DNA of 64,000 nucleotides from a virus. The position numbers were made by a program, and so were the translations under genes. The notes under the pieces were generated by a model. It searched no databases and had not been told where the DNA came from. It worked only from the letters and a program-made list of their open reading frames with translations. Positions within the stretch are counted from its first letter, which is position 1. Each line of letters opens with the position of its first letter. The DNA lies in IMG/VR virus record IMGVR_UViG_3300007513_001761, positions 49,249 through 113,248 of that record, one strand, 5' to 3'. Shown one piece after another: positions 42,812-59,549 of this stretch.

Positions 42812-43639
42812 TACTACCGCATAGCTGACGTTGCAAGCGCATTACTAGCGATGTTAAGTGAGTGTCAAGTGTTACGGTTGTAAAGTATATGTCATTTGTT
42901 ACTGTATACGTTGTTATACAATACTCTTATATACACTAACGCAATGATAGTACCCCAGAATGTAATGTTAGTTGGTAACTGTAATAGCTTTTTAATATAT
43001 CTTTTTGTATTACTCTCGGACATTTTCCTACTCTCCCTCAATGTATATAGTGTAACTCTCGCACACACGGCCCCATCGCAACGCTGTCACAAAAAAGCGC
43101 GAAAGAAAAAGGCGTGAGATTACAGCTACTTAGTTAACGTTCGCCTTAAGGGGAGACGATTAGTTCTGCTGTTGGTATGCCAATGGTGAACGACAGCACA
43201 GCCGTGGCCACTAAGACCGCACACAAGACCAACGCACCAACGCCGTCTACGATTGTATCGGTATCACGCATAGTGATTCTCCTTTATAGTATATGTTTTG
43301 ATAGGGTGAAAGCTCATACGGTAGCGTATACATAGTTATACGGACAGTAAAAGACTTGACAAAAGATTGCGCTTGACATGCGGTGGGTATATGTATATGG
43401 CCCCCTCGCACAACTCCCACAATACTATTACAAATATAATCACATAACAAACGCAATCCCTTTATGTACTTCGGGCTATTCATTACCTATATCCACTTTG
43501 TTTAATGTTGTGTTAAATGCTACTCTCACACAAAAGCCTCTACCTGTCCATTCTCTGAATGCATTAATAGCATCATCTATAGCTGTGAATGTATTGAACA
43601 GTGTACCGTTAATGAATAGCTGATGTACCATATATATTT

Positions 43640-43912: not shown

Positions 43913-44011
43913 AACGTTGCCTTTATTAAGTTGCCTGCGAATGTTACAATCTCTACTCTGTACTCCCAAAGTACGATTGTAATCGCGGCTGTGATTAGTC
44001 TGTCTACCATT

Positions 44012-44969
44012 TTATTCTCCCTTTTGTACTCTCATATGTTTTAGTAATGACTTGTCGAACAGTCGAGGTTGACTGTCACCAACTAACAATACTTTGTGAT
44101 TCTCTATTACAACTCCATCGGTGCGGTTGATCCGATTGATGCCCAGATAGATACCTGTGCGTCGGTTAATGTCTCGGCAATGGCCATTGATGTAATCAAG
44201 TTTGAATAGTTCACCGGGTTTCATTAATCACCTCTAAATCTCTATCCAAAACGCGGCGAGGGGCGCGGTTGCCGATGAAGTGAACCTCAAGCAAAGTGTG
44301 CGCACCCTGGATGTGCGTCTGATCAAACTTACGCAAGATAAGGCCAACAGAACCAGCAGGTAAAAGGATTGAACTGCGCGTTATTCTCACTAAATCACCG
44401 GGCTGCATTGATAACCTCCAACCACTTAATAGGTTCCCATGATATCTCTTGATCTTGAATCCAATAAACTTTAACGCGCGGTCGTGTACTCGGATCAACA
44501 CGCAGCGCACCATTAGCGGTAGTCTGTAAAACAACACCGAGAGGCACGATCTTTTCATCACAAGGAAACTTTACCAGATCACCGACTTTCATTTTTTACC
44601 ACCTCGATGTCGTCAACGTTTGCAATCTGAACGCAACCGTTACCCCACGCAACGAGCCAGTGGTGTACGCCCTCAAGCAGATATAGCCCCATGTCCGCGT
44701 CTGCTGGGCGAACAAGCACACCAAGTGTACCACCATAAAGGGTCCACAGCGGATCGGTCTCAATCTCTCTAACCAGATCACCGACTTTCATTTAGAACCT
44801 CCACATCGCACAGAGCAGCCGAACACCAGCGCCCATCGGAAAGCTGCACATCGATGATTGTGTTTGACTCTTCTTCTGCGTCAATCACCATTGCAATGCC
44901 GATCACATACTGACCGCCATGGCGTGCGTTGGCGCGCCGATAGACGCGAACCAGATCACCGACTTTCAT
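44012..44969 (-). repeat. Cassette run 1: five chained GDLV mini-genes (44012-44224, 44211-44408, 44395-44592, 44579-44791, 44778-44969)
   Basis: Each begins M(K/Q)(V/P)G(D/E)L; successive genes overlap by exactly 14 nt. Confidence 0.88.
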
Positions 44970-45270
44970 TTTTTACCCCCTCGATGTGACGGCAACGACG
45001 CCGAAACTGATAGCCGGGACACGAGCAACGCCATGCGCCGCCGAACTCTTCCACCCGGTACGTCGCACCCTTGGAGCCTGTCACGGTCCACCGCTGCATC
45101 TGCGTGGCCGTCTCGCTCGGAGCGTTCCACGTCATGTACTTGGGAAGGTCTGCGCGAGTTGTGCCATCGGGCACAGGGATCCACGTCCCACCGCTGATCG
45201 CGTACAACTGCCCGTCCAGCATGCGGGACAGGATCGGGTTCCATGGAACGGTGACGGGTTTATCGGTCAT
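44956..45270 (-). CDS. SWIM zinc-finger protein using the same 14-nt junction
   Basis: V.GSKG..Y.V...WRCSCPGYQFRRRCRH; ends KNESR. Confidence 0.8.
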   Translation of the reverse strand: MTDKPVTVPWNPILSRMLDGQLYAISGGTWIPVPDGTTRADLPKYMTWNAPSETATQMQRWTVTGSKGATYRVEEFGGAWRCSCPGYQFRRRCRHIEGVKNESR

Positions 45271-45496
45271 TGATAGCCTCAAAATAATGTACGTTAAAGG
45301 TTTCTTTTCGGCTACCTGCCAAGAAGGTGGCCATCGGGTTGCCAGACAAACAGGTAGAAAGGCTCACCAGTACGCCGACCGTGCCGTGCAAGGCTGTGAA
45401 GGAGCCGCTCCCAGACCGGGATCCGCTGCTGATGTCTTTGAAGCGAACGAGATCGCCCACTTTCAGTCCGGTATCGTTTTCAAAATATGGGTTCAT
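45260..45496 (-). CDS. GDLV mini-protein
   Basis: MNPYFENDTGLKVGDLV...FEAINDR. Confidence 0.7.
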   Translation of the reverse strand: MNPYFENDTGLKVGDLVRFKDISSGSRSGSGSFTALHGTVGVLVSLSTCLSGNPMATFLAGSRKETFNVHYFEAINDR

Positions 45497-45702
45497 GCTT
45501 GGGCAACCTCGGAGATTTCGGCAGCAAAGAGCAACGCATTCACGCGCTGCATGTTTGTTTGCACTGCATCGTTGGGCGGTGTGGCCAAGTCGGCATAGAT
45601 GGCAAGCTGGAGCACCAGCACGTTGCACGCAGCAGCTTGCTGCTCCATGGGCGTGAGTGCCTTTGGGGCGTTGCTGGCGGAAAGGGTCAGGTCGCTGAAC
45701 AT
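45493..45702 (-). CDS. Hypothetical helical protein
   Basis: GAGG RBS; first gene after promoter copy 1. Confidence 0.55.
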   Translation of the reverse strand: MFSDLTLSASNAPKALTPMEQQAAACNVLVLQLAIYADLATPPNDAVQTNMQRVNALLFAAEISEVAQA

Positions 45703-45745
45703 GTAAATCCTCGGGGGGTGCGGGCAAATCTCTAACTTATGATCT

Positions 45746-45798
45746 ATTATCTCATATGCGAGCGAGAAAAGCAAGCCGATCCTGTCAAGAGAATGTCA
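45746..45798 (-). promoter_or_regulatory. Composite promoter copy 1
   Basis: TGACA-N6-TGACA-N8-TTGCTT-N17-GATAAT. Confidence 0.8.
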
Positions 45799-46020
45799 AG
45801 TCACAGCCTCCAACCACATCGGGTGAAAACACAGGATCTTCGCGCCAAACTGGACATGGTACAGATCCCTGTTTTTATGCCGTCTCTCTGATCTGACGAC
45901 TTCCACAACCAGACCGGTCCTGCTCTCTGGGAGCATCGGATCGTGGGTGCCGTCAATCACCCGAACCAGATCGCCAACGGCGAAAGGTTTATTCGTCTTC
46001 GTCGGTGTAGTAGCCATCAA
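45796..46020 (-). CDS. GDLV mini-protein
   Basis: FAVGDLV...GLVV...LEAV; stop is the TGA of the promoter box. Confidence 0.75.
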   Translation of the reverse strand: MMATTPTKTNKPFAVGDLVRVIDGTHDPMLPESRTGLVVEVVRSERRHKNRDLYHVQFGAKILCFHPMWLEAVT

Positions 46021-46198
46021 GGTTTGTTTGGGAAGAGGACAAGGGCATTCGATAAACCATCTCGTCCTGAATGAAATAGGCGTGCTGCTCCATATCGGGC
46101 AAATAAGCTAGGATATGGTCAAGTAGTTCTTTGAGTTTCTCAATCTCTTCTTCGTTGCGCATGCGCCGGTAGTCGTCAAGGTTTATTAGCTCGCCCAT
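45989..46198 (-). CDS. Hypothetical protein
   Basis: Start MGELINLDDYR with GAGG RBS. Confidence 0.6.
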   Translation of the reverse strand: MGELINLDDYRRMRNEEEIEKLKELLDHILAYLPDMEQHAYFIQDEMVYRMPLSSSQTNLDGYYTDEDE

Positions 46199-46503
46199 CA
46201 GAAAGGCACCTCTAAATAGGGGTCTTGCGTGAAGGGTGTCGCCTCGAAGATAATCGGCAACATGACGAGAGTAACCCCGGAACGCATGGCCAAGCCGACG
46301 TGACAACTTGTGGTCTGAGACTTGAAGGCGTTGCCGCCTGCCATGTACTCGGCCACAATGGTGCCGCCCATGCTTGTACGATGTCCGATCTTGAGATGGT
46401 AGGAATAAAGGTTTGTTCCGTCTGTGCTCATGGTGCAACGTCCATTGCGTGCGCGCTCTCCGCGCTTCCATGCTTCAATAACTCCTTGATTGGTGGTTCT
46501 CAT
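46198..46503 (-). CDS. Hypothetical phage protein
   Basis: AGGAG RBS; LYSY...IG, SQTTSCH. Confidence 0.7.
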   Translation of the reverse strand: MRTTNQGVIEAWKRGERARNGRCTMSTDGTNLYSYHLKIGHRTSMGGTIVAEYMAGGNAFKSQTTSCHVGLAMRSGVTLVMLPIIFEATPFTQDPYLEVPF

Positions 46504-46515
46504 GGTTGTAACTCC

Positions 46516-47799
46516 TTAATCGACCGCAATGACGCGCTCGTTGGTTTCAAAGTAGGGACGATCCGCATATGCCTTCGTCGTCATCCACATACGCTGGCAT
46601 GCGCTGGGAATGGGCTTAGGAGCACACATATCGGTGAGGATGATGTGACCGTCAAAGTTGTTTTCGTTGACGTACTTGGTGGGTGCATCAAAACACGTCC
46701 CACCGCAAAGCACTCGTTCCCATGCGCGGGTCTGTCCACGCTTCCAAGTATAAATCTTGTCCTCTGCAACGGCAGAATCAAAGGGGATCACCGTGAACTC
46801 TGCGATCTCGGCCAACTCGTTCAACTCGTTGAAAAACGCCGCCAGCATGCCGTCATCCACCGATCCGCTCTGATCAATGCTGATCGCGATCTTGGCGTGG
46901 CGACGGACGCGCTTGCCAGGATGGATCTTGGGGAAGCGACGGTTGATCCGTCGTGGCGTCGAGCGCCGATCAGCGCGTTGGGAAGTTTTAACGAAGTACC
47001 GCAGCACCTTGCGCCAGTCCACGCGGGTCTGGATGCGCTCAAGAATGTCTTTGCGCATGGATGCAGACACGGATCCCCAGCTACGAGCCTTTTCGGCTTC
47101 TTCTGCTGCCTTCTTGATCGCGTCCTTCAATCGCTCCGTGGCGATGTCTTTGGCAGTGCCTTCGGCATCACCGAACTGCTCGTGTGAATCAAAGCTATCG
47201 GCACCACCGAACGGATCGCCGTTGCCAGGCTGACCGGGCTGGCCACCTTCACCGGGCTGACCTTCGCCCGGCTGGCCTTCGCCGCCGCCGTCGCCTTCAC
47301 CTTCGCCCATCTTCTTGAGGGCTTCCAGATACCACTCGTAGGTCTGGTTGGCTGGCAGGTCGGCAAATGGACCTTCGCCCGGAATGCAACCCTTCATAGG
47401 CTCGCCGTTAATGTCCGGTCCTGGGTCGGTCTCACCTGGCAGCTTGCCGATCATTTCGGGCAAGCCGTTGATGGCCAAGTCCATCGCGATATTGTCGATG
47501 CGCTTCAAGCCGTCGATGGGCTTGCGACCGGTCACATGCTCAAAGATGATGTGATAGAACTCGTGCATGAGAACGCCCAGCTTGTGCTCGTCCTTCAAAG
47601 CGCCCATAAAAGAAGGGTTATAAAGAAGCTCAAACTGCTGCCGTTCTGGGTTCACGCGCACGCCCGCAGTCGGGATCGCAGTTGATGCGGTCTTGTCAAT
47701 CCGACGCGACAACGCAGCAAAAAACGGCTCTTGCATCAGCAAGCGCGCGGTGTGCATGTTCAAGTTGAAGGGGGTTTTAGTTGCGTTGTCGTCGTTCAT
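46516..47799 (-). CDS. HExxH metallopeptidase-VWA protein (DUF2201-like)
   Basis: MHEFYH, NIAMDLAIN, Gly/Glu linker, IDQSGS, GGT.F, LTD. Confidence 0.9.
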   Translation of the reverse strand: MNDDNATKTPFNLNMHTARLLMQEPFFAALSRRIDKTASTAIPTAGVRVNPERQQFELLYNPSFMGALKDEHKLGVLMHEFYHIIFEHVTGRKPIDGLKRIDNIAMDLAINGLPEMIGKLPGETDPGPDINGEPMKGCIPGEGPFADLPANQTYEWYLEALKKMGEGEGDGGGEGQPGEGQPGEGGQPGQPGNGDPFGGADSFDSHEQFGDAEGTAKDIATERLKDAIKKAAEEAEKARSWGSVSASMRKDILERIQTRVDWRKVLRYFVKTSQRADRRSTPRRINRRFPKIHPGKRVRRHAKIAISIDQSGSVDDGMLAAFFNELNELAEIAEFTVIPFDSAVAEDKIYTWKRGQTRAWERVLCGGTCFDAPTKYVNENNFDGHIILTDMCAPKPIPSACQRMWMTTKAYADRPYFETNERVIAVD

Positions 47800-47819
47800 T
47801 TCCTTACCTCACTATACTA

Positions 47820-47872
47820 AGTATAGCAGTTGAACGGTTTGAAGTCAATAGTTTCGTGTCAAGAGAATGTCA
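47820..47872 (-). promoter_or_regulatory. Composite promoter copy 2
   Basis: TGACA-N6-TGACA-N8-TTGACT-N17-TATACT. Confidence 0.88.
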
Positions 47873-48154
47873 AGACTCATTTTTCTCGTCATCGTCTGCC
47901 ATGATCTCAGCGACCTCGGCCACCGTTAGCTGACGATCAGCCTTCCGGCGCTTGTTGTACTCGCGCAACAGGCGGTTGTACCGCTTGGAGTTGGGCTTAC
48001 AAACATGGATATGAGGCACTCCGATCCGGCTCATGCGCCGGAACATCTCGCGCGTTGCCTGCTCCGTGTCAGGGCGCGTTAGTGGCACCTCGGTTGCAAC
48101 AGGTTTGCCATCGACGATGGCCACAGACGTTTGACTCACATACCACTTGCTCAA
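47870..48154 (-). CDS. Hypothetical protein
   Basis: AGGAG RBS, TTG start; stop lies inside promoter box. Confidence 0.65.
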   Translation of the reverse strand: MSKWYVSQTSVAIVDGKPVATEVPLTRPDTEQATREMFRRMSRIGVPHIHVCKPNSKRYNRLLREYNKRRKADRQLTVAEVAEIMADDDEKNES

Positions 48155-48183
48155 GATAAGCTCCTTTCTCTAGCTGATGATCT

Positions 48184-48236
48184 ATTATCTCATTTTTTGA
48201 CCTAAAAGTCAACCTCCACATGTCAGGAGAATGTCA
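48184..48236 (-). promoter_or_regulatory. Composite promoter copy 3
   Basis: TGACA-N6-TGACA-N8-TTGACT-N17-GATAAT. Confidence 0.85.
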
Positions 48237-48241
48237 AAGGT

Positions 48242-48454
48242 CTAAGGTTTGTTTGGGGTGTAATACTTGGCGCGCACTTCGATGTCCTTCATCCAAAAGT
48301 ATCGACCCTCTTGAAAGAGCCGGTAGATCCTGCGTGGTTGCTTGATGTTGCCGTACTCGTGTAGGTAGTCATCATTGACCTCGGTCACAATCGCCGGTTG
48401 ACCGGTCTTGTACTGGATGAGGAGCGCGCCAAGCTCAAAGGTTTGTTTGCTCAT
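48242..48454 (-). CDS. Divergent GDLV-type mini-protein (FELGALL)
   Basis: Motif pattern. Confidence 0.6.
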   Translation of the reverse strand: MSKQTFELGALLIQYKTGQPAIVTEVNDDYLHEYGNIKQPRRIYRLFQEGRYFWMKDIEVRAKYYTPNKP

Positions 48455-48678
48455 AGCTTCTCGCCTGGCACACGCATGAGGACATCGCCGTGGAAGATCA
48501 TGGACTTCCTACTTTTCAACCAGCGCACGGTGTAGCGGGCACGATAGGGTTTCTCAGTTATAACCTCGGTTATCATCCCTGGCCCGCTGGTTTCCGTGAA
48601 CGCCTGGTCAGGCGACCCTCTTGCAAGGCGGTTGGTCAGATAGACCAACTCGCCCAAAGAGAAGGTTGGATCAGACAT
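48451..48678 (-). CDS. GDLV-type mini-protein (FSLGELV)
   Basis: GMITEV...YTVRW. Confidence 0.65.
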   Translation of the reverse strand: MSDPTFSLGELVYLTNRLARGSPDQAFTETSGPGMITEVITEKPYRARYTVRWLKSRKSMIFHGDVLMRVPGEKL

Positions 48679-48679
48679 T

Positions 48680-49759
48680 TTAGCCTCCCAAGATGCTGAC
48701 CAAGTGATCGCTGACGCGCTTGCCGCCAGTAGTTTCTGCCTTGTGCAGTGCGACCACGTTGTTCACGTTGTCGGCATCACCCAGGACGGTCCACATCTTC
48801 ATAGCCACCTCGGAGGGCAGCGTGACGAAGTAGTTGGCCAGGTTCTGCACCTGCGTCTCGGTCAGATCCGCTGCAAAGGTCTCCGCAGCTTCAAACTTTT
48901 GGATCATGGCAGCGTGATCGTTGATGCCCCACTCGGAGGTCTTAGCGATATCGCCACTATCAAGGATGTCCTCAATGGTCACCTGCCAAGCGTAGTTAAC
49001 AACGAAGTCCTTGAGTGCTACCGCTGCCTCGAAACCGAGAAACGCAGTGGCCAGGTTGAAAAGCAGGTCTTGATCGCCGCCCTCTTCAAACACGCCAGCA
49101 GGTGCGGCGGTGTTGTTGAACCGTGCCCAAGACCGGCGAGAAGGATAAACCTTGTTGGGCTCAAAGTCGCCCTTGTGCTCAAGGTGCAACCGGTTGTGGT
49201 TGATGAAGTCCCAGACAACGGTGTTCACCTTGCCGTCCTTCGCCCAGTTCAGCCAGTCCTCGTCAGAGGGATCCACATCGAAGACGGTCCAGCGGTCGAG
49301 TTCTGCCGGGTCCATCTCACCGACTTGGTACTGGGCACCATGCTCGCCACCGTTCACGGCTGCGATGATGATGGTCTCCGGGTGAAGGTTCCACCCGTTG
49401 ATCTTGCGGGAATCGGTCAACTCGAAGAGACCCTGACGGACCTCCATCGTTGCGCGGTCTACCTCATCGAGAAACAGCACCACCGGCTGCTCGCATGCGG
49501 TCACGAGCCAGTCGGGCGCGTTCCACGTCGTGGCCTTGCGACCGTTGATCGAAGTGTCTGCCGTGTCGGGCAGACCGAGAAGATCGCCCTCGGTCATCTG
49601 GGACGCCCGGCGCTCCACCACAGGCAGAGTCATCTGATCAGCGATCATGTAGACCACCTCGGACTTGCCGACGCCATGGCGACCGCGAATAAGCACGGGC
49701 AGCTTGGCGCTGATGATGTGAGGGGCGACGGAAAGGAAGGTTGCGAAATCGACGGACAT
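48680..49759 (-). CDS. MoxR/dynein-related AAA+ ATPase
   Basis: GRHGVGKS Walker A; LFLDEVDRA Walker B; AAVN; DPAELDRW; PSRRSW. Confidence 0.92.
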   Translation of the reverse strand: MSVDFATFLSVAPHIISAKLPVLIRGRHGVGKSEVVYMIADQMTLPVVERRASQMTEGDLLGLPDTADTSINGRKATTWNAPDWLVTACEQPVVLFLDEVDRATMEVRQGLFELTDSRKINGWNLHPETIIIAAVNGGEHGAQYQVGEMDPAELDRWTVFDVDPSDEDWLNWAKDGKVNTVVWDFINHNRLHLEHKGDFEPNKVYPSRRSWARFNNTAAPAGVFEEGGDQDLLFNLATAFLGFEAAVALKDFVVNYAWQVTIEDILDSGDIAKTSEWGINDHAAMIQKFEAAETFAADLTETQVQNLANYFVTLPSEVAMKMWTVLGDADNVNNVVALHKAETTGGKRVSDHLVSILGG

Positions 49760-49800
49760 TTAGGCTCCAGAGATTAGTTGTTTCTCACTCTTACTTTATA

Positions 49801-49853
49801 AGTATACAGGAAAAAAGGTTTCAGGTCAAGGTTTATTTGTCAAGAGAATGTCA
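49801..49853 (-). promoter_or_regulatory. Composite promoter copy 4
   Basis: TGACA-N6-TGACA-N8-TTGACC-N17-TATACT. Confidence 0.88.
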
Positions 49854-50106
49854 AAGGAAAGCCGCCGTCTGCCCATTGCAAACCCGACTCTGTGATGGTC
49901 CACTCATCGAGCCAACGCCCATCCATGGATCGCTCACGCTCGATCAAACCTTCGAGCACAAGCATGTCCAGGGCAAGACGTGGCCACGAGGTTTCGGGCG
50001 CTTGCAGGCTATACATGCCATCGCGACTGGTCACGACACGACGCAGCATGTAGATATCCCGCCTCGAAAGCAGCTTATCGTTGAACATATAAAGTCTCTC
50101 TCTCAT
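49840..50106 (-). CDS. Putative winged-helix protein
   Basis: L..L...GLI......W.ITE.G pattern. Confidence 0.55.
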   Translation of the reverse strand: MRERLYMFNDKLLSRRDIYMLRRVVTSRDGMYSLQAPETSWPRLALDMLVLEGLIERERSMDGRWLDEWTITESGLQWADGGFPLTFS

Positions 50107-50936
50107 GCTTTCTTTGCCTTAAAGGCGGCAACGATGGTGTCTGATTCCCCGGAAAGCCAGTTAGCAGGGGGATTAATCTTGTCCGCGCTGACGGGGGAAA
50201 CCAGGGCACGGCGCTGGTAGTCGTTTTCTGAATCGTCCAGCTTCCAAGCTCCCAGGGTGCTGCCCATGCGAGGGGTAACATCGCCATGCACATCGACTCG
50301 AAGGATGTCCTGGTCCTCATTACGAAGATAGGGAAGCTCCATAGACTCACGGCGCTGGGTGTCCAGCTTATCCATCCGATGCAGAACGAGCACCGGGGCG
50401 CGCGAGTTGTAAATAGACATTTTATCCCACATTACATCGGTCACCATGCACACCACCTCGCGGCGATCCCAGCGCTTCTCGCCTGGGTTCTCGGGATCTG
50501 GGAAGTAGTCAGAATACCTTTGTGAAACGAGAGATCCCACCCCGATACCAGCGGCGCGCATGCCCTCAAGCACTACGCTGCGCATGGCGGCGGTCTTTTC
50601 GATGGCCCTCTGAATGTCTGCTTTTAGGGCAGAGCAGGTGCGGCGCGTGTGCCCCAAACCTTCTTCGGCCTCATCGCCATACTTGTACTTGCAGTAGGAG
50701 CAGCGGCGAGTGGGTCCGCGCTTTTCCAGCTTGTCGCCGGTCAGCGGGTTAACACCAGTCCGCACGGCGATCTTATCGGCCATCATTTTAGCCATGCGCT
50801 TGTCATAATCACAATCGCTAGCGTTGAAGCGATCAAAACGTTTTTGCAAACGCTTGAGTGCTTCAGGGCAAGACCTTCTGTTGTGTCCGCGCTGGTAGCA
50901 CGCGCCGCATCGAACTGTTCCGTAGTGATTACCCAT
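50103..50936 (-). CDS. Protein with two CCHC-type zinc knuckles
   Basis: CGAC...GHNRRSC and CSYC...GHTRRTC. Confidence 0.75.
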   Translation of the reverse strand: MGNHYGTVRCGACYQRGHNRRSCPEALKRLQKRFDRFNASDCDYDKRMAKMMADKIAVRTGVNPLTGDKLEKRGPTRRCSYCKYKYGDEAEEGLGHTRRTCSALKADIQRAIEKTAAMRSVVLEGMRAAGIGVGSLVSQRYSDYFPDPENPGEKRWDRREVVCMVTDVMWDKMSIYNSRAPVLVLHRMDKLDTQRRESMELPYLRNEDQDILRVDVHGDVTPRMGSTLGAWKLDDSENDYQRRALVSPVSADKINPPANWLSGESDTIVAAFKAKKA

Positions 50937-50981
50937 GTTTTCTATCCTCTCGGGGGGGTGTCTTTCTCGACTTGATGATCT

Positions 50982-51034
50982 ATTATCTCATATGCGGCGC
51001 GCAAAGTCAACGCCCAAATGCAAAGTGAATGTCA
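50982..51034 (-). promoter_or_regulatory. Composite promoter copy 5
   Basis: TGACA-N6-TTGCA-N8-TTGACT-N17-GATAAT. Confidence 0.8.
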
Positions 51035-51262
51035 AGAGACGATTTCCAAGGCCGAAGCTGCCATACGAGCAGGTTTCTTCTCGCCCGCCCAGAGCACCAG
51101 CGGATCACCCTTGTCGGGGTTCACATCTCCAAAGTGATCGAAGGCGACGAGAACGCCGACCTTGCGAGCATGCACGGACAGACGAAGTCGGGCGCGCTCG
51201 GCAGCGCGATCCGCCTTGAAGCGGACCAGGCAGCCGGGGGAAATGTCGTCTTTCGTCATCAT
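51032..51262 (-). CDS. GDLV-type mini-protein (SPGCLV), probably leaderless
   Basis: ATG 6 nt after the -10; ends LEIVS with stop in promoter box. Confidence 0.7.
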   Translation of the reverse strand: MMTKDDISPGCLVRFKADRAAERARLRLSVHARKVGVLVAFDHFGDVNPDKGDPLVLWAGEKKPARMAASALEIVS

Positions 51263-51268
51263 GTATAC

Positions 51269-51321
51269 ATTATCCCATGAAACAGGGAAGAAGTCAAGGT
51301 TGGTTTGTCAGGAGAATGCAA
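51269..51321 (-). promoter_or_regulatory. Composite promoter copy 6
   Basis: TTGCA-N6-TGACA-N8-TTGACT-N17-GATAAT. Confidence 0.8.
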
Positions 51322-51323
51322 AA

Positions 51324-51506
51324 GGAGGCGATAGAGAGTGTGCGCTGTCCTTACCGCGCACGTCGCTTAGTCCCGCTTCAACTGCCACTTCGCGGCTAGC
51401 CTGCCTAAGAAGTCCGCGTTATGTGACTTCTAACCCTTGTTTTCAGCAGATGGGTTCGTTTGGGACGGTGAACCCGTTACTTTAGTTATGGCTCTCTATC
51501 GCCTCC
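51324..51506 (-). ncRNA. Candidate 183-nt multi-stem structured RNA
   Basis: Perfect 15-bp terminal inverted repeat GGAGGCGATAGAGAG/CTCTCTATCGCCTCC followed by TTTT; several internal stems; possible pseudoknot. Confidence 0.7.
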
Positions 51507-51522
51507 GGCACTTACTCCTCCA

Positions 51523-52338
51523 TTATCGACTTTCTCCCTTCTTTTTCTTGGGTACTCGATGGGTTTTAAGATCGCGCTCTTCTGCGATGATCGTTTGGGT
51601 GCCTCCCACCGGCAGAAGTTTGTAAACCTTGTTGCCGCGCGCTGCGGCGACGGGAATCTCGGCGTTGGCTTGAATGACCACGGCCATTTCGGAAGGCATC
51701 TTGCGCCGGAGCGCCCAGGAAGCACTACCGCGCAGCGATACCATGCTTCCAACCTCGTATTTCGGGGCATCGAAGTAGCCCGCTAGTACCTTGGTTGCGT
51801 ACTTGTTGTTGGTCAAGCGGTCATAATCGCCCTTTGATGGTACACTTTCGGGGCTCAGACGCGCGCGCGACACGATCCGCTGAAAGTAGCCGTTCTTCCG
51901 GTAGTATTCCACCATCACATCAAACTTTTGACGCATCTCTGGGGTAAAGTCCTTCTCCCATGAGGCGCGCGTGGCCACTTGTCCGGCGGTCCAGTTGCTT
52001 TCAATGTTGGCCAAAACCTCTTGCTGACGAGGAGACAACGCGCTGCCTGCCATCAGTTGCTTCAGAAGGCTCTCGGTGAAGCCGAGCCCCCACTGTGCAT
52101 CGTCTCCACTCATGCGAGAACGCAACCCCTTGATGCGCGCGATCATTTCTTCATCGCGTGCAGGAGGGCTGTCATAGCGCGCTTCCAGTTGCAGCAGGCA
52201 ACGCTTCCGTCCGGCGGTCAGCGTGCGGCGGTGTTTGTAAGAACCATAGAGAGATTCCGCAAACGTCCGATCTCGCTCGCTCAAGTAATCTTTGGCGAGA
52301 AGGGCGGCGAAGCGGTCAGCGTAAGTGATGCGAGGCAT
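51523..52338 (-). CDS. Hypothetical protein with repeated F.ESL...L(S/T) helical units and C-terminal SH3-like domain
   Basis: AGGAG RBS; YEVGSMV...YK.L. Confidence 0.75.
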   Translation of the reverse strand: MPRITYADRFAALLAKDYLSERDRTFAESLYGSYKHRRTLTAGRKRCLLQLEARYDSPPARDEEMIARIKGLRSRMSGDDAQWGLGFTESLLKQLMAGSALSPRQQEVLANIESNWTAGQVATRASWEKDFTPEMRQKFDVMVEYYRKNGYFQRIVSRARLSPESVPSKGDYDRLTNNKYATKVLAGYFDAPKYEVGSMVSLRGSASWALRRKMPSEMAVVIQANAEIPVAAARGNKVYKLLPVGGTQTIIAEERDLKTHRVPKKKKGESR

Positions 52339-52363
52339 GGGTTAAACTCCTTTCTACTCTCTA

Positions 52364-52416
52364 AGTATCTCATAGAACGAGGTAGAAGTCAAGGTTTCTT
52401 TGTCAGGGAAATGTCA
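52364..52416 (-). promoter_or_regulatory. Composite promoter copy 7
   Basis: TGACA-N6-TGACA-N8-TTGACT-N17-GATACT. Confidence 0.82.
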
Positions 52417-52424
52417 ACAAAGGT

Positions 52425-52820
52425 TTATTCGTCTTCTTCCACGATCACAGGGGTTGCTGTGCCCTGCATCATGCGCTGGAGGGCTGCACGTCGCTGTGCT
52501 GCCATCGAGCCCAGCCGCACATCAGAATCACCAAAAGCCTGTTGAGACCTGGCTTTCTTTATTTCGCGCGCTTGGAGTCCAATCTGAATAAACTGCTCTG
52601 CTGCTGCGGGCGGTGCTTCGTTGAACCTATCGTCCCACCCATCATCGCGGTGCAACATTTCGCGCAAGTCATCCTCCAATGCTGTAAGTTCGTTGATGCG
52701 ATCAGCAAGCTCCGGCGACGGCAAACAACCTGCTGACGTTTTGCCCACTTCAATGATGTGTGCGCCGACTGCCGTCATCAGCAGGGAAAGTTCGCGATCT
52801 GTTAGTTCGAGGGTTTTCAT
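52425..52820 (-). CDS. Hypothetical protein
   Basis: GGAG RBS. Confidence 0.65.
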   Translation of the reverse strand: MKTLELTDRELSLLMTAVGAHIIEVGKTSAGCLPSPELADRINELTALEDDLREMLHRDDGWDDRFNEAPPAAAEQFIQIGLQAREIKKARSQQAFGDSDVRLGSMAAQRRAALQRMMQGTATPVIVEEDE

Positions 52821-52845
52821 GTGTCATATCTCCAAGTGATGCTCT

Positions 52846-52898
52846 ATTATCTCATTAAACAGGGGGAAAGTCAAGGTTTGTTTGTGAGGGAAATGTCA
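52846..52898 (-). promoter_or_regulatory. Composite promoter copy 8
   Basis: TGACA-N6-TCACA-N8-TTGACT-N17-GATAAT. Confidence 0.8.
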
Positions 52899-53180
52899 AG
52901 TAATCTTCTGGAACATGTCGAACCGGTCATCAACAAAGTTTTTGACTTCGCGCAGCCCATCAAAACGTGGAGGTTCGCCGGACCCGCGTGCTGTTTCTGC
53001 CATTTTTGCGCATTCATGCCCGTAAGCACGGAGCAACTTGATCAACTCGATCTTGCTGAAAATCGCCTTTCTTCCGTAAGAAGAAAGACCTGCGTGTTTG
53101 CGCGCAAGAATGTTTGCGATCTGAAGTGCGTCTTTCAAACCTTCTCGATCTTCCGTGTCTAAAACTAGTGTAACTTTCAT
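52896..53180 (-). CDS. Protein with ribosomal L7/L12 C-terminal-like motif
   Basis: KIELIKLLR.....GLREVKNFVD. Confidence 0.55.
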   Translation of the reverse strand: MKVTLVLDTEDREGLKDALQIANILARKHAGLSSYGRKAIFSKIELIKLLRAYGHECAKMAETARGSGEPPRFDGLREVKNFVDDRFDMFQKIT

Positions 53181-54059
53181 TTAACTGCCTCAATGCTTCG
53201 GTGGTGGAATGGCCAAACCTTTCCCTGAACGAGCACATCGTAAAAGGTGTTGTTGACCCCGTGGCGCGGTTCACTCACAATGATCCCGATGGGCTTACCA
53301 TCAATATACTTGCAACGTACTAAATCACCGACTTTCACTGATCACCTCTGCTTCGTCGGCTCGCACTTCCACGGCTCCAAGTTTGTCCGCAACTTTCAGC
53401 ACTCGCACCAAGCCCTCCATGCGCTCGCCTATGATGATGCCTCGATACTGTGTGTATTCCCACGGCTCAAAAGCTGAGCCGGTACCGGTTGAGTACCATT
53501 TCCAACGGATAAGATCACCGATTTCCATTTAGAACCTCCACTTCACCCAAGTGACAAGAATAATACTCGCCGTTCCATAAAACCCTTGCACGAGCATAGA
53601 CATGGGGATCGTAATCATCAAACGACATGAAGATCCCGATAACCTTCTTACCCTCAACTGTGAACCTCACCAGATCACCCTTTTCCATTAACCACCTCCC
53701 ATTCGCTCGCCATGCCGCGATACTTGGTGCTACCGACTAAAACCGTGATCACTTCATAAGGGGTACCAAGCACGCCTATGGTGATCACAACACCAGGCTT
53801 ATCAGTGTACGTGAAGCGCTTGTTGTTTTTAGCAGCCCAAAACATCATAGGTTTCATTTTCACCAAATCACCGACGTTCATTGATCACCTCAATATCTCG
53901 GCGGTAGTAAGCCGATGGCTGCTCGTGGGCATAGCCGTGAAAAGCAATAATCGGATCGTTGTCGCTGTCGAAACTGACCACAATGCCAGTTCCTAAGCGG
54001 GACGGCTTTTCCACATCTTCACGGGCATCAGCGAAAACTACCAGATCACCGACGTTCAT
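53177..54059 (-). repeat. Cassette run 2: five chained GDLV mini-genes (53177-53338, 53325-53528, 53515-53688, 53675-53881, 53868-54059)
   Basis: Two members (53 and 57 aa) translated by hand, below the ORF-track cutoff; 14-nt overlaps. Confidence 0.88.
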
Positions 54060-54204
54060 CTGCTTGCCCCTTGTGCTTGCCGTGCCGCACGTAACCGCGC
54101 TTGCTGTGAAATCCTGCGCCTTTGCGTCCAGTGAGACCTTTGGCGTGTGCGATCACCCAGTTGCGGGCTTTCGGCGTCTTGTTCTTGCTCTTTCTCTTAC
54201 TCAT
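54046..54204 (-). CDS. 52-aa basic protein with ArfA-like C-terminal motif, leaderless
   Basis: Manual translation MSKRKSKNKTPKARNWVIAHAKGLTGRKGAGFHSKRGYVRHGKHKGQADERR. Confidence 0.6.
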   Translation of the reverse strand: MSKRKSKNKTPKARNWVIAHAKGLTGRKGAGFHSKRGYVRHGKHKGQADERR

Positions 54205-54210
54205 ACATGT

Positions 54211-54263
54211 ATTATAGAGGATTTCGCCCTCAGAGTCAAGGGTTTAATGTCAGGAGAATGTCA
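54211..54263 (-). promoter_or_regulatory. Composite promoter copy 9
   Basis: TGACA-N6-TGACA-N8-TTGACT-N17-TATAAT. Confidence 0.9.
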
Positions 54264-54446
54264 GGTCTTTGCCATCCTCTCAAGCCGACTTTCCCGAAAA
54301 GGTTTAATCAGGTTCCGCTTCGTGAGGTATACATAGTAGCATAAATGCCCGACTATCGGCTCGGGATGTTTGCGCATCACGATACCCGTATGCAGAATGT
54401 GGCCAGTCCCCACAATACGCACCAGATCGCCTTTCTTAAAGCTCAT
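54261..54446 (-). CDS. GDLV mini-protein (MSFKKGDLV)
   Basis: GAGG RBS; stop lies in promoter box. Confidence 0.75.
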   Translation of the reverse strand: MSFKKGDLVRIVGTGHILHTGIVMRKHPEPIVGHLCYYVYLTKRNLIKPFRESRLERMAKT

Positions 54447-54454
54447 TTCAATCC

Positions 54455-54772
54455 TCAACCCTGCAACTGGGTTTGTACCACGGCAATCCGATACTCGGCG
54501 TGGCTTTGGTCCCAGAGCACATCGCACCATGAGCGAAAGATGGAATACAGATCGCCGCTCGATTTTGCCTTAAGCTCTTCGGTGGAACCGACAAAGCAAC
54601 GTTCGCCGTTGTCATCCACATATGTGGACAACGAGCCCTGTTGTGGCAGCGCGCCTATCAGATACTCATAGATGTCTTCAATAGCGCAGATTAAAGCCCC
54701 CTTACGGGTCATGTGAACGCTCGTAAAAGCCTCACCATCATAGGTGCCCACTGTGGAATATACTTTTATCAT
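54455..54772 (-). CDS. Hypothetical protein
   Basis: Start MIKVYS with ATGA overlap. Confidence 0.6.
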   Translation of the reverse strand: MIKVYSTVGTYDGEAFTSVHMTRKGALICAIEDIYEYLIGALPQQGSLSTYVDDNGERCFVGSTEELKAKSSGDLYSIFRSWCDVLWDQSHAEYRIAVVQTQLQG

Positions 54773-55113
54773 GCGCTTCTCTTCTCTTTGCTCTCGGCCA
54801 ACATCTTCTCTACCCATGCACCACCAAACTCGGCTGCGTACTTGTCGCGGAGAACCAGCAACTTCTCGCCGTCCTTCACTTCGTTGCGCAGCTTGTAGCC
54901 AGGAATCAAAAACTCGGTCCCTGGAGGCATGCCGATAAACACAGAGCACACAGCATAGGGCACAGACTTCCACCGGGTTTTTTGCTCTCCGGTCTTCTTG
55001 TCCTTCCAACTGCTGCGGAAGCGCCGAAAGCGCATGTCAATCACGCGCGCTTGAAGCAAGCCGCCGTCTGGTTTTTGAATCATTACGATGTCGTCTTTGG
55101 TCAGATAAGCCAT
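54769..55113 (-). CDS. Hypothetical beta-rich protein
   Basis: AAGGA RBS. Confidence 0.7.
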   Translation of the reverse strand: MAYLTKDDIVMIQKPDGGLLQARVIDMRFRRFRSSWKDKKTGEQKTRWKSVPYAVCSVFIGMPPGTEFLIPGYKLRNEVKDGEKLLVLRDKYAAEFGGAWVEKMLAESKEKRSA

Positions 55114-55143
55114 TGAATGTGTCCTTTCTTGAGGTTATGCCTT

Positions 55144-55196
55144 ATTATGCCACAGGGAGATTGAGAAGTCAACCCTCAAATGTCAAGAGGATGTCA
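55144..55196 (-). promoter_or_regulatory. Composite promoter copy 10
   Basis: TGACA-N6-TGACA-N8-TTGACT-N17-CATAAT. Confidence 0.85.
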
Positions 55197-55739
55197 GGAC
55201 TTCAAGGGTGTGCGTTGGAGTTTGAAAGGTGCCGTAAGATCCCCAGCAAACCTTGGCAATCCCCGCATTCATCTCTACAATGATTCCGATTCCCTTCCAG
55301 GTGCTGCGCTTGGCCAGTAGTCCATACTTCTTGCGGACCAGATCGCCAATGGCCAAAGGTTTATTCACAGTTTCAGAGTTTTTCATAGTAGTAGCTCGGA
55401 TCTTGAATGATTCCCTCAGAAAGAGAATGGATTTTGAGAATGGGATATTCGGACTCTCCCCACCCTAGTGCTTTTGATTCTGGAGTTTCAACGTGGATAA
55501 TATCCAAAATGACACAAACACCACCGGGCTTGCGATGTTGCCACACCAAATCACCCACTTTCATTTAGCACCTCTAAGTTCGCACCCAGACACGAGAAAC
55601 TATGGCCATCAAGAGCGCGCAAGTCGTAAATAAACCGCGTTTCACCAGCGGAATCTTTGACTGAATGGCGAACACGCACAATCAAAGCCAAGATCATGCC
55701 AGGGTGGGTTTTGACCACCACCAGATCACCGACTTTCAT
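55183..55739 (-). repeat. Cassette run 3: three chained GDLV mini-genes (55183-55386, 55373-55564, 55551-55739)
   Basis: 14-nt overlaps. Confidence 0.85.
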
Positions 55740-56114
55740 TTAGAAGTCCAGATTGATGGTGGTGTAGGGGTAGATATCCTGAAAGCCGTATCCGCGACTC
55801 TCAATGTCTGTACTATTTTCGCCCACTCGAACAAAGCGATAAAGCTCATCCAGTTGCATGCGTTGGCCATTAACTTCAATCTCAGTGCCCTCGTCGAGCT
55901 TTTCCATGAACGCCTCAATGGCTTCAATGACTGCATAGGAACTATACCATTTAATAGAGTTCCACCGAAACATGATCCCATCTTCGCGTTCTCTCTTTTC
56001 GTCGCAATCCTCATGGCACAAAGTGTGTGCGCCTGGACAACTTGTGAAAAGATGCATCAGCATTCCTTCGATTCGCTTGTCAACCACCAACACTACTTCT
56101 GAACGATAACCCAT
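55740..56114 (-). CDS. Hypothetical phage protein (MGYRSEV family)
   Basis: AGGAG RBS; W..IKWY, RFVRVGE...D. Confidence 0.75.
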   Translation of the reverse strand: MGYRSEVVLVVDKRIEGMLMHLFTSCPGAHTLCHEDCDEKREREDGIMFRWNSIKWYSSYAVIEAIEAFMEKLDEGTEIEVNGQRMQLDELYRFVRVGENSTDIESRGYGFQDIYPYTTINLDF

Positions 56115-56143
56115 GTGCTCTCCTTTTTTGAGCTTGTGATAAG

Positions 56144-56196
56144 AGTATAGCAGAAGACCAGAGCGCGGTCAAGGACCAAATGTCAGAGACATGTCA
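56144..56196 (-). promoter_or_regulatory. Composite promoter copy 11
   Basis: TGACA-N6-TGACA-N8-TTGACC-N17-TATACT. Confidence 0.88.
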
Positions 56197-56200
56197 AAGG

Positions 56201-56621
56201 TCATGCGCTGCTGATTAAATCCAGTTCTCCCAAATGAAACCAGACTGAGGGCACCCACTTGTGCTCGGAGTTAATGTGGTTAGTGTGAAAGTAAACACGA
56301 TAGGAGGTATCTATCAGCGGATGTTTTGACCGTTCTATTTCCACAATAATGCCCACCATGTGGTGCGCCGTTCGTCGTTTGGGTTTAACCAAGTCACCGA
56401 CTTTCACTTAGTACCTCAAATCGTTCCAACGCAAAGTGTGAGAGGGTAGTAGCATGGCCACCGTGGACCGGCAACGGCTCAAACCATCGCACTGCTAAAC
56501 GAGGCTTACCATCGACCGGAGCAACCGGCGTAAAGTGTGTAATGTAACCCACATGCCCGATGAAGTGATGATAACTCTCACCTTCGGACAACCCAACGTA
56601 TTTAATAATCGATCCAATCAT
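56201..56621 (-). repeat. Cassette run 4: 56201-56407 (GDLV) and 56394-56621 (MIGSII..., leaderless)
   Basis: 14-nt overlap; 56201-56407 is a paralog of 56685-56891. Confidence 0.8.
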
Positions 56622-56627
56622 GTTATG

Positions 56628-56680
56628 ATTATAGTCTCTGGCGATCAAAAAGTCAAGCGCCACATGTCAGAGAAATGTCA
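56628..56680 (-). promoter_or_regulatory. Composite promoter copy 12
   Basis: TGACA-N6-TGACA-N8-TTGACT-N17-TATAAT. Confidence 0.9.
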
Positions 56681-56684
56681 AACG

Positions 56685-58061
56685 TCAGGCGCTGCTGATC
56701 AAGTCCAGTTCTCCCAAATGAAACCACACGGACCTCACCCACTTGTGCTCGGAGTTGATGTGGTTCGTGTGGAAATAGACGAGATAGGATGTGTCTATCA
56801 TCGGATGTGGCGGTCGGCTGATCTCCACGATAATGCCCAGCATGTGGTGTGCTGTAAAACGTTTGGGTTTGACCAAATCACCGATTTTCACTGATCACCT
56901 CTATGTTTTCGGGACACTCAGCCGAAAGACCCTCAACATCGGTCCACATAGGAGTATCCCAGTGTACCAGCACTTGTTTGTGATCCCACCCGGTATTTAT
57001 ACACATCACAATACCGAATCGTCTTGATCCAGACAGTAGGTTAGCTTTCGTTGGGCGTACTAGATCACCCACTTTCATCGTACACCTCAAAAGGTTTATA
57101 TGTAAGTCGGTTAAACCATTTGGCTGGGTAGGCGGTAAGACCATGACCCCACAAAATGTGATATTCGCTCGGGTGTCCCTCGTGCATGACGATTTTTACC
57201 AACAAACCCAGCCAAGATTGGGTGTAGTCTAGCCCTGGCCTTGCTTGATGCGCCTTAGAAAACATCACCAGATCACCCACTTTCATTTACAACCTCCATT
57301 TGTTCAAGGGGTGTGGAGTAGATTTGGCCATCCCACAACACATAGGCGCGAGTAATGACCGGATAGCCTTCGGCGTCTCTGCCGATAGCAACGATGTCAT
57401 CCCGAATAAAAACCCCAAGAACGGGTTTCTCATGCGGACCAAACATTACTTTCACCAAATCACCGGGCTTCACTGATCACCTCTGCTTCGTCATTAGCCA
57501 GTTCCCACTCGCCACAATCAAACTGAACGATCCACATCTGACAGCCGTGTCGGTATTCTTCTTGCTTCTTCACCACTCCGAGGCGGCTGCTTTCATGGAA
57601 GCAAAAGAAACATTCACACTCTCCTTGGCTGTACCCAGGACAATCCGCAACCTTTACTAAGTCACCCACTTTCATTTACAACCTCCAACATCGCGCGCAT
57701 GTGCCAGCTTTTGCCATGGCGTGGCCAGATCACGATGGCATCATTCCACACATCACAATCGAGATCGCGGTCCAGCGAATAGCCTCTTTGTTCAAAAGCA
57801 ATCACAATGCCATATCCCATCTCATCAATGGTTTTGCGGAGAGCGTCACGGTCTAGTAGCTCGTCATTCTTTAGTCTAACGATGTCACCCACTTTCATTG
57901 ATCACCTCATAGTTCCAGCCTTGTAGCCAGCCCGCCTCTCCGATAACCTTTATCCACCCCCCATCTGTGGCACGCACCAAGTAGGCTTTATCATAGCGAG
58001 TTGTGATAGACTTGGCTCTCACTAAGTCACCCACTTTAATCCGGGGCTTCACCTGCCTCAT
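56685..58061 (-). repeat. Cassette run 5: seven chained GDLV mini-genes (56685-56891, 56878-57078, 57065-57286, 57273-57473, 57460-57675, 57662-57898, 57885-58061)
   Basis: Six 14-nt overlaps; last member (58 aa) translated by hand. Confidence 0.9.
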
Positions 58062-58088
58062 CAATGCCTCTTTCTTTAGGTTGTGTCA

Positions 58089-58141
58089 ACTATACCACAG
58101 CCCCCTTAAACGGTCAAGCCTGTTTTGTCAGAGGCTTGTCA
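58089..58141 (-). promoter_or_regulatory. Composite promoter copy 13
   Basis: TGACA-N6-TGACA-N8-TTGACC-N17-TATAGT. Confidence 0.82.
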
Positions 58142-58267
58142 AGTTCAACGCGGCGAAGCTGCTCGCGAATAGTTTTTACGTTCTGATCTGTGAGGGTGGT
58201 CTGCACAGGCTCACAAAGATACCCGCGCAGCCACCACACAAACTGTGCGGCCGAAAGGTTTGTTTGG

Positions 58268-58567
58268 TCAAGACTCAAACTTGATGACTCCCGGCGGTAG
58301 TTCGCCATCCACCATCCCACCATGCTTGGCGATGACGGTGGCCACAGTGAACACGGGAACGTATGCGTACACGGTTTCGGTGGGCTTGGCATGATCCTCC
58401 ACGTATTCCATCAGCATCTCTTCTTTTTCGGAAGGAAAGCCCACTTCCACCTCGGTGTAACGTGTGGCGTGGTCCATTCGCGGGCTACAGTATGCTCCAT
58501 CGTGCGCTTGGACGCTCATTGTAAAGCCGTCCGCACACACTACCATTTTATTGCGTTTAAGGTTCAT
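58268..58567 (-). CDS. Hypothetical phage protein (CADGFTMSVQA family)
   Basis: GGAGG RBS before MNLKRN. Confidence 0.7.
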   Translation of the reverse strand: MNLKRNKMVVCADGFTMSVQAHDGAYCSPRMDHATRYTEVEVGFPSEKEEMLMEYVEDHAKPTETVYAYVPVFTVATVIAKHGGMVDGELPPGVIKFES

Positions 58568-58571
58568 TGTT

Positions 58572-58778
58572 TTATCCTCCTCTCTTGTCAAACAATGTGT
58601 CAATGCTTCCAGTGAAGCTGTTGGGCGCCATGTCGCGGAGATTTTCTCGCGTTCTCTTGGCAGCAATGCGACGTGCGGAATGATCCCCGCATGTCAGACA
58701 TGTATCATAGCCCAGTTCTTTGCGGCGGTAGTTGTACTCCTCTCCGCATTTAATGCATTCAGCGATTTTCGCTAACAT
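58572..58778 (-). CDS. C4 zinc-finger small protein (TraR/DksA-like spacing)
   Basis: CIKCGEE...R..LG...CLTC. Confidence 0.6.
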   Translation of the reverse strand: MLAKIAECIKCGEEYNYRRKELGYDTCLTCGDHSARRIAAKRTRENLRDMAPNSFTGSIDTLFDKRGG

Positions 58779-59019
58779 AATATTCTCCTTGGTTGTTGTA
58801 AAAGTGATATTGCCTTCTCAAATTGAAAAGGTTTGTTTCGCACTCTCGGGGTACTGCCCATCGTGCGCCGGGTTTCTTGGTGGTCCAGTGAATCTCCCAA
58901 AAGGCTGTGCCGTATTCTATCTTTCTCTCCGTCAAGATACCCTGACATCCTGGCTCCGCGTGGTGTGCGCTGGTGACTACGAGGTCACCTGGACTAAACT
59001 TATAGCGATTGTAGCTCAT
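58759..59019 (-). CDS. GDLV mini-protein (FSPGDLV)
   Basis: Motif pattern. Confidence 0.7.
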   Translation of the reverse strand: MSYNRYKFSPGDLVVTSAHHAEPGCQGILTERKIEYGTAFWEIHWTTKKPGARWAVPRECETNLFNLRRQYHFYNNQGEYYVSENR

Positions 59020-59261
59020 TTATTTCCTTTGCTGATTAGCTCAAGGTCAGTAGGGAGCCAGTCAAAGACGGAGCCGTCAGTGTGACGAACCTCCACCACT
59101 TCCGTGTGTTGAAAACTTGTACCGGCTGCTTTCATTTCTCCCTCCGAAACATTTATAACGACACCCGGATTGTAGATGGCAACGGGGAATCCTCCGTTTT
59201 CGGTGTGCCAGTCTGCGATGTTTGAATGCATTTGCACCAAGTCTCCAACTTCAAACTTCAT
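59016..59261 (-). CDS. GDLV mini-protein (FEVGDLV)
   Basis: GVVI...DLELI. Confidence 0.75.
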   Translation of the reverse strand: MKFEVGDLVQMHSNIADWHTENGGFPVAIYNPGVVINVSEGEMKAAGTSFQHTEVVEVRHTDGSVFDWLPTDLELISKGNK

Positions 59262-59285
59262 TTGTGCCTCCTAAAAAGGAAAAAT

Positions 59286-59534: not shown

Positions 59535-59549
59535 CTTTCCTCTGCGGTC

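Follow-up and report, generated by a model that had tools for sequence, protein, structure and literature searches.

The stretch of DNA analysed here (the window, 64,000 nucleotides) comprises bases 49249-113248 of the 113,248-bp IMG/VR contig IMGVR_UViG_3300007513_001761, which belongs to an uncultured marine phage with a contractile tail and is estimated to be 61% complete. Its minus strand carries a series of composite promoters, in which a direct repeat of two TGACA boxes stands upstream of a sigma70-type promoter, and at 13 of 13 such promoters a co-oriented open reading frame (ORF) starts 6-45 nt past the -10 element. A search with Pfam and PHROGs detected no DNA-binding domain in the first gene behind each promoter or in the ORFs at 58-64 kb, and the 52-aa, extremely basic product of ORF 54046-54204 had no family match. 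The presumed early region (window 44000-60000), in which these promoters lie, has a G+C content of 49-55%, compared to about 38-45% in the rest of the window, and a similar local rise was seen in two complete relatives (G005 and G006). No near-identical DNA was found in cultured phages, and there was no RNA among the public runs listed as holding the phage.

Ten exact TGACA-N6-TGACA pairs were found in the window, every one of them within 45783-58141 on the minus strand, compared to a mean of 0.11 and a maximum of 1 in shuffled sequences. When the 53-bp composite TGACA-N6-TGACA-N8-TTGMYY-N17-NATAMT was used as the pattern, 13 minus-strand copies were recovered between 45746 and 58141, ten of which were perfect and three of which had one or two box mismatches (Table 1). 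A scan of the whole 113,248-bp contig, allowing up to three substitutions, revealed no full composite elsewhere. These 13 copies stand exactly where a sequence-only reading of this DNA had placed them. That reading had also described them as host-type promoters forming one co-oriented set, with N8 and N17 sequences that vary between copies, and had listed four plain promoters without boxes, all of which was borne out.

Table 1. Positions of the composite promoters and associated features (window coordinates unless a contig or locus is named)
Feature	Position (strand)	Boxes	-35	-10	Genes and remarks
Composite promoter 1	58089..58141 (-)	TGACA/TGACA	TTGACC	TATAGT with TG	58-aa ORF 57885-58061
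Composite promoter 2	56628..56680 (-)		TTGACT	TATAAT	ORF 56394-56621; leaderless type, ATG 6 nt after -10
Composite promoter 3	56144..56196 (-)		TTGACC	TATACT	ORF 55740-56114
Composite promoter 4	55144..55196 (-)		TTGACT	CATAAT with TG	ORF 54769-55113; upstream ORF stops at box 2 TGA
Composite promoter 5	54211..54263 (-)		TTGACT	TATAAT	ORF 54046-54204; leaderless-type ATG; upstream ORF stops at box 1 TGA
Composite promoter 6	52846..52898 (-)	box 2 TCACA (1 mismatch)		GATAAT with TG	ORF 52425-52820
Composite promoter 7	52364..52416 (-)			GATACT with TG	ORF 51523-52338
Composite promoter 8	51269..51321 (-)	box 1 TTGCA (2 mismatches)			ORF 51032-51262; leaderless-type ATG
Composite promoter 9	50982..51034 (-)	box 2 TTGCA (2 mismatches)			ORF 50103-50936; upstream ORF stops at box 1 TGA
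Composite promoter 10	49801..49853 (-)				MoxR-type AAA ATPase gene 48680-49759
Composite promoter 11	48184..48236 (-)			GATAAT with TG	ORF 47870-48154
Composite promoter 12	47820..47872 (-)				VWA/metallopeptidase-like (DUF2201) gene 46516-47799; upstream ORF stops at box 1 TGA
Composite promoter 13	45746..45798 (-)		TTGCTT	GATAAT with TG	ORF 45493-45702
Stop TGAs inside cassettes (examples)	47870-47872; 49840-49842; 54261-54263				
Plain promoters	14202-14230; 17433-17461; 60161-60189; 60784-60812	none	TTGACA	at 14202; 17433; 60161; 60784	
Box array	42852..42901 (-)	six T(G/T/A)ACA, two 11-bp pairs in a 27-bp unit			no promoter; degenerate
Box-array homologue	L012:2416-2540	five direct, two inverted			
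Box-array homologue	G004, about 21.3-21.5 kb	four direct, one inverted			
Sigma4-like gene	L029:16957-17220:- (G004); L025:14106-14369:- (G003); G005, about 64.0 kb; G006, about 141.7 kb				
Sister-clade promoters (sources)	L157, L211, L212, L199, L201; contigs G019, G020, G023				marine phages

To describe the anatomy of the element, we built a consensus from 42 N8-type copies in five contigs, with the inter-box spacer lying outside the search pattern. It reads c-TTGACA-TTCTCT-TGACA-N7-C-TTGAC(T/C)TT-N..-TG-n-(T/G)ATA(A/C)T. The information held in both boxes equals or exceeds that in the -35 and -10 elements, and the spacer between them is almost purely pyrimidine, with TTCTCT as its consensus, C frequent and A nearly absent, whereas the N8 and N17 spacers have drifted freely. 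The upstream part is an 18-bp site, cTTGACA-TTCTCT-TGACA, located at about -60 to -44. Box 2 can do without the first T of the hexamer, which is replaced by C in one third of the copies. Box 2 was also considered as the -35 of a tandem alternative promoter, which was ruled out by the lack of a -10 element 17 bp downstream.

All 13 core promoters score 9-11 of 12 as sigma70-type elements with a 17-bp spacer, except for the last one, whose -35 deviates (Table 1), and the extended -10 TG is present in most copies. In three copies (-10 elements at 51269, 54211 and 56628), the start codon (at 51262, 54204 and 56621, respectively) follows the -10 by 6 nt, implying that these promoters would make leaderless mRNAs, because the ATG stands where transcription should start. 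No terminator-like hairpin adjoins any of the 13 promoters; the terminator-like sites that were detected (29, versus 19.4+/-4.4 in shuffles) are scattered. As a separate observation, many -10 hexamers form one arm of a short inverted repeat that extends to about +10, such as CTATACT-T-AGTATAG, with examples at 47808-47828, 51258-51272 and 54200-54214, among others. Arms of 5 bp or more were present at 53% of 90 promoters versus 17% of random windows, a figure that is inflated by A/T palindromy.

The composite promoters also mark the boundaries of gene modules. When the early region was compared with six relatives by blastn, 7 of the 13 promoters had homology blocks starting 1-5 bp ahead of box 1, and the sequence upstream of box 1 at such joints was unrelated to that of the relatives. 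Upstream of the MoxR-type gene, the DNA homology to six relatives begins exactly at box 1. The ORFs that run in from upstream stop at the TGA of box 1 (5 cases), of box 2 (2 cases) or of the -35 (1-3 cases), or end 5-11 nt before box 1, so that at least 8 of 13 are terminated by a TGA of the boxes or the -35. In N8-type cassettes, box 1, box 2 and the -35 each place their TGA in a different reading frame, so any ORF entering from upstream is terminated within the cassette; in the N9 type described below, the TGAs fail to cover all three frames. From these boundaries, the cassette of stop codon, boxes and promoter would serve as the left-hand joint for the exchange of gene modules between related phages.

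Plain and composite promoters are separate classes in the same phages. The sixth base of the -35 is A in only 5 of 72 composite promoters (T in 48 and C in 17), compared to 43 of 61 plain promoters of the same phages (Fisher p=5e-15), and the boxes, unlike the composite -35, end in A without exception. The actual -35 of composite promoters thus avoids being a third box, which argues that the box reader is not sigma70 itself and that binding of the reader at the -35 would be harmful. In addition, the place of box 2 is taken in plain promoters by an A-rich, UP-like tract (about -44 to -39).

The geometry of the element was further surveyed in 106 composite promoters from 13 related marine viral contigs, a clade with two complete genomes, one of 187 kb (9 composite copies) and one of 195 kb (15 copies). 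The box-to-box period was 11 bp in all 106 promoters, and a 10-bp period was never used. The distance from the end of box 2 to the -35 was 8 bp in 50 copies and 9 bp in 52; in a further 2-3 copies, all in contig G011, it was -1 bp, with box 2 abutting the -35, and in two copies, one of them a three-box array, it was 19 bp. Distances of 0-7 or 10-18 bp did not occur, and no compensation between the N8/N9 distance and the length of the -35/-10 spacer was seen. The box site therefore shifts across the clade by steps of about one helical turn, indicating a face-of-helix constraint as expected for a bound protein that faces RNA polymerase. The geometry had been called invariant, and this is so within the genome under study, where N6, N8 and N17 are kept in 13 of 13 copies, but not beyond it, since relatives use N9, abutting or N19 layouts; the orthologues of composite promoter 7 keep N8 in five relatives. 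In a sister clade of marine phages, the site takes the form cGTGACA-N4-GTGACA with a 10-bp period, and its boxes lie 9 bp from the -35 or abut it.

Boxes also occur in arrays without a promoter. One such array, degenerate in this genome (Table 1), lies in non-coding DNA directly past the downstream end of the early region, and a conserved C-rich tract comes after it at about 42793-42813; clearer homologues were found in two relatives. The conserved non-coding element consists of 4-6 boxes in 11-bp phase, with the C-rich tract (GTACCCCCCTCCCCC...) about 40-50 bp further on, and a box-array element was also noticed at window 43340-43385. Docking of RNA polymerase alone does not account for these arrays, and they support a factor that binds phased TGACA boxes independently of the polymerase. 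The element might act as a replication origin or titration site, or in the control of the regulator's own gene.

Taken together, the direct repeat is as conserved as the -35 and -10 elements, strictly phased and coupled to the promoter in whole turns, and in these respects it behaves like a protein-binding site, as had been proposed from the window alone. We propose, with a probability of roughly 0.6, that the boxes are the tandem-dimer site of a predicted regulator that touches RNA polymerase from one helix face and thereby co-sets a group of early genes. Each element would consist of a strong sigma70-type promoter for the host RNA polymerase plus the added 18-bp upstream site, which would most likely bind two head-to-tail copies of one sequence-specific DNA-binding protein. 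The bound protein would contact RNA polymerase from a fixed face of the helix in a class-I or OmpR-like geometry, and it may set the output of the whole gene set together early in infection. Activation or boosting would be the most likely effect, with a timed shut-off as the alternative.

As for the reader of the boxes, we considered a regulator of the host and a protein of the phages themselves. The layout is that of an OmpR/PhoB-type class-I site, with a tandem repeat of 11-bp period in 106 copies, co-directional orientation and a pair centre at -51.5/-52.5, and both this centre and the orientation match the published activating positions of RpaB HLR1 and CenR sites. By this comparison, host OmpR-family regulators other than PhoB fit the box geometry much better than PhoB does. 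A host response regulator of the OmpR/PhoB family is a tentative candidate for the binder, and so, to the same degree, is the clade's own Cys-rich, stand-alone sigma-region-4 protein; in the remaining cases the binder would be some other factor.

The sequence-only reading had allowed for control by a phage factor, and a candidate reader is indeed encoded, but in relatives only. This sigma4-like protein has 82-87 aa, five conserved Cys and a sigma region-4.2 helix-turn-helix, and its gene is present in every relative with coverage of the relevant region, in both clades, 16-28 kb upstream of the box cluster. It scored 36.8 bits against Pfam PF04545 (cut-off 24.1), the profile of its family matched only sigma factors in PDB (RpoH at 7.5e-5, RpoD and FliA), and its AlphaFold2 (AF2) model was of moderate quality, with a predicted local distance difference test (pLDDT) score of 69. 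The gene was found on 288 IMG/VR contigs from marine viruses and in none of the cultured phages. The recognition helix of the protein, SFAR(V/I)KQIE, hardly varies, like the TGACA core; the only difference in the helix is between ARVKQIE in the main clade and ARIKQIE in the sister clade, and this V/I difference between the 11-bp and 10-bp clades is compatible with the host-regulator and the sigma4-reader models alike. In its operon, the gene is located between those of a conserved 107-aa protein (upstream) and a 200-aa highly acidic protein. A ribbon-helix-helix fold considered for the 107-aa protein found no support (AF2 pLDDT 69, no Foldseek or PDB profile match). Going upstream from the sigma4-like gene, the first consensus promoters belong to the plain class, as at 144,084 in G006. 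If this protein reads the boxes, a sigma domain would have been cut loose to become a dimeric factor and would give the phage a private regulon over host promoters; the -35 would have evolved to escape it, and the 11-bp and 10-bp clades would be co-evolved pairs. We regard this complete scenario as speculative.

Several observations weigh against the regulator model or against its candidate readers. The near-consensus core promoters should fire without any activator. No gene for a winged-helix regulator (Trans_reg_C) was found in seven phage contigs, two of them complete genomes, so any such reader would be the host's. The sigma4-like gene is absent from the contig under study and would lie beyond the contig end, and its co-occurrence with the boxes is confined to two related clades and carries little statistical weight. 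The residues with which E. coli sigma70 reads the -35 are R584, E585, R588 and Q589. The sigma4-like helix has F at the position of R584 and A at that of E585, with K and Q kept at 588/589. The protein could equally be a polymerase-binding late factor, because the phages also carry a strand-specific motif, (a)aCTATTTA(t/a), which likely represents a -35-less late or middle promoter class. Counts of this motif on the coding and the opposite strand were 28 and 0 in G000 and 39 and 2 in G006, and it often lies 15-30 nt ahead of the ribosome-binding sites of structural genes.

Other explanations of the boxes were weighed against the same evidence. The sequence-only reading had pointed to PhoB, with the phage PhoH as a supporting sign, in which case inverted Pho boxes read by the host PhoB would tie the early genes to phosphate status. 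Read on the opposite strand, the boxes do become TGTCA-N6-TGTCA, repeated every 11 bp, which is also the core sequence of PhoB sites in E. coli, for example at pstS (TGTCATAAAACTGTCATA), and the Pho box is bound by a tandem winged-helix dimer. However, in that reading the repeat runs against the direction of transcription. It covers about -44 to -60 and, rather than replacing the -35, leaves an intact near-consensus -35 one turn further downstream, and the inter-repeat spacer is GAGAA/TTCTCT, not the A/T-rich 4-bp spacer. PhoB-activated promoters require strict spacing to the core elements (PMC10294691), yet the box site takes three or four positions across the relatives, and the sister clade has a 10-bp period. 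A link to PhoB and phosphate is hardly credible on these grounds, and the phage PhoH is no evidence for Pho control. It is also conceivable that no separate factor is involved and that the boxes dock RNA polymerase itself, through sigma region 4 of waiting holoenzymes or the alpha C-terminal domains, as a surrogate UP element or "antenna". The boxes resemble the -35 consensus and occupy the zone of alpha C-terminal domain binding at -44 to -60, where the plain promoters of the same phages have A-rich tracts. Nevertheless, if sigma read both elements, shared preferences would be expected, whereas the boxes always end in A and the -35 almost never does; the first T of the hexamer, dispensable in box 2, is replaced by G in the sister clade; and the boxes and their spacer are not A/T-rich, as an UP element would be. 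Considering that the promoter-less phased arrays and the strict 11- or 10-bp period fit a dimeric factor better, we find docking of the polymerase distinctly unlikely.

The apparent constitutive strength of the core promoters would suit boxes that are operators of a phage-made repressor shutting off the early set. The candidate DNA-binding protein of the phages has its gene behind plain promoters and would be the first to appear, and the inverted repeats that contain many -10 elements might be a second operator. A repressor, however, would profit from a box at the -35, which avoids the box sequence, and sites at -44 to -60 do not occlude polymerase; moreover, quantisation by helical turns is typical of contact-dependent activation. 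Repression in this form is therefore unlikely. Finally, the boxes might have no role in transcription and be joints for recombination, pads that supply stop codons, or relics of duplicated -35 elements carried along as the cassette spread, as the start of homology exactly at box 1, the stop codons supplied to upstream ORFs and the coverage of three frames in the N8 type would suggest. A stop pad needs only TGA, not TGACA with a fixed period and a pyrimidine spacer, and the N9 type leaves frames uncovered; relics would decay like the N8 and N17 spacers; and neither the quantised distance to the -35 nor the sixth-base dichotomy is expected for a pure recombination site. We consider this explanation highly improbable, and a regulator-binding site remains the preferred interpretation.

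A promoter design of this kind was not found in the literature, although parts of it recall known systems. The feature combines an activator-type tandem site on a sigma70 promoter with a repeated early-promoter cassette at module joints. In T4 middle promoters, with their MotA box and AsiA "sigma appropriation", and at lambda CII sites (TTGC-N6-TTGC), a temporal class of host-polymerase promoters is set apart by a phage-made factor that recognises a short motif beside the -35 or substituting for it. These sites resemble the abutting layout seen in G011 and the sister clade. However, T4 and lambda have a weak or replaced -35 and only one factor site, at a fixed position, whereas the phages described here keep a near-consensus -35 and, in the genome under study, have the site one turn further upstream.

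Among bacterial regulators, RpaB of cyanobacteria binds HLR1, two direct 8-mers of the form (G/T)TTACA(T/A)(T/A), and activates when HLR1 is centred near -51 (PMC6525291). The phage site, TTGACATT-CTC-TTGACAA, has a similar centre (-51.5/-52.5), relatives show TTTACA variants, and the 8+2 layout is reproduced exactly in the sister clade (GTGACATT-TC-GTGACA), but the phage core is TGACA instead of TTACA and the main-clade period is 11 instead of 10. The CenR sites of alphaproteobacteria are TGA-N8-TGA repeats, such as TGACATGATCGTG and TTACATTCGCGTGAT, that are co-directional and lie directly upstream of the -35 in 28 of 31 activated units (PMC9275681). They share with the phage boxes the direct repeat, the 11-bp period and the orientation, and differ from them in that the CenR motif is of low information and its target promoters are not of consensus strength. 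At the level of the cassette, the closest parallel is the promoter-early stem-loop (PeSL) of T4-type phages, which combines a terminator stem-loop with a promoter (Arbiol 2010, PMC2839356; Comeau 2014, PMC4122927). In both cases, a large phage with a contractile tail has many copies of a conserved early-promoter cassette among the small genes of a hyperplastic region, and the cassettes coincide with points at which relatives differ in gene content. Unlike PeSL, the cassettes described here have no terminator before the promoter; upstream ORFs run into the boxes, which supply their stop codons, and the extra element is a phased pair of -35-like boxes.

The host range of these phages was also addressed. 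The composite pattern had 0 matches in 185,579 bacterial and archaeal genomes. The nearest cultured relative, judged by the baseplate wedge (31% identity), is Microcystis phage Mel-JY01, which has no TGACA pairs and, in its first 150 kb, neither consensus promoter arrays nor HLR1-like repeats. As psbA, used as a test for cyanophages, is also absent from five contigs, nothing points to a cyanobacterial host. In the host search, the sigma4-like gene matched only a 48.7-kb phage-like contig (L149, PBLX01000020.1) of the marine metagenome-assembled genome "Legionellales bacterium SP228". This contig is probably from a phage and would be a weak host lead at best, and the genome showed no box enrichment (4 matches versus 3 in the control).

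The new aspects of this system are the helical quantisation, the dichotomy at the sixth base of the -35, the sister clade that has a 10-bp period and shares the accessory gene, and a candidate reader encoded by the phages. The design is compact and regular, with about 10-17 copies per genome and more than 100 instances in widespread, entirely uncultured marine phages of 185-195 kb. With three or four helical registers and two periods, it represents a clean natural experiment on the coupling between upstream tandem sites and consensus promoters, and it extends the use of regulatory cassettes as joints for the exchange of gene modules beyond the classical T4 group. The 18-bp site can be used as bait for finding the binder and, if this is a host regulator, perhaps the host too. 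The system may reveal either how a phage makes use of a host response regulator to express the genes that it needs first, or a new kind of phage transcription factor that arose from sigma region 4.

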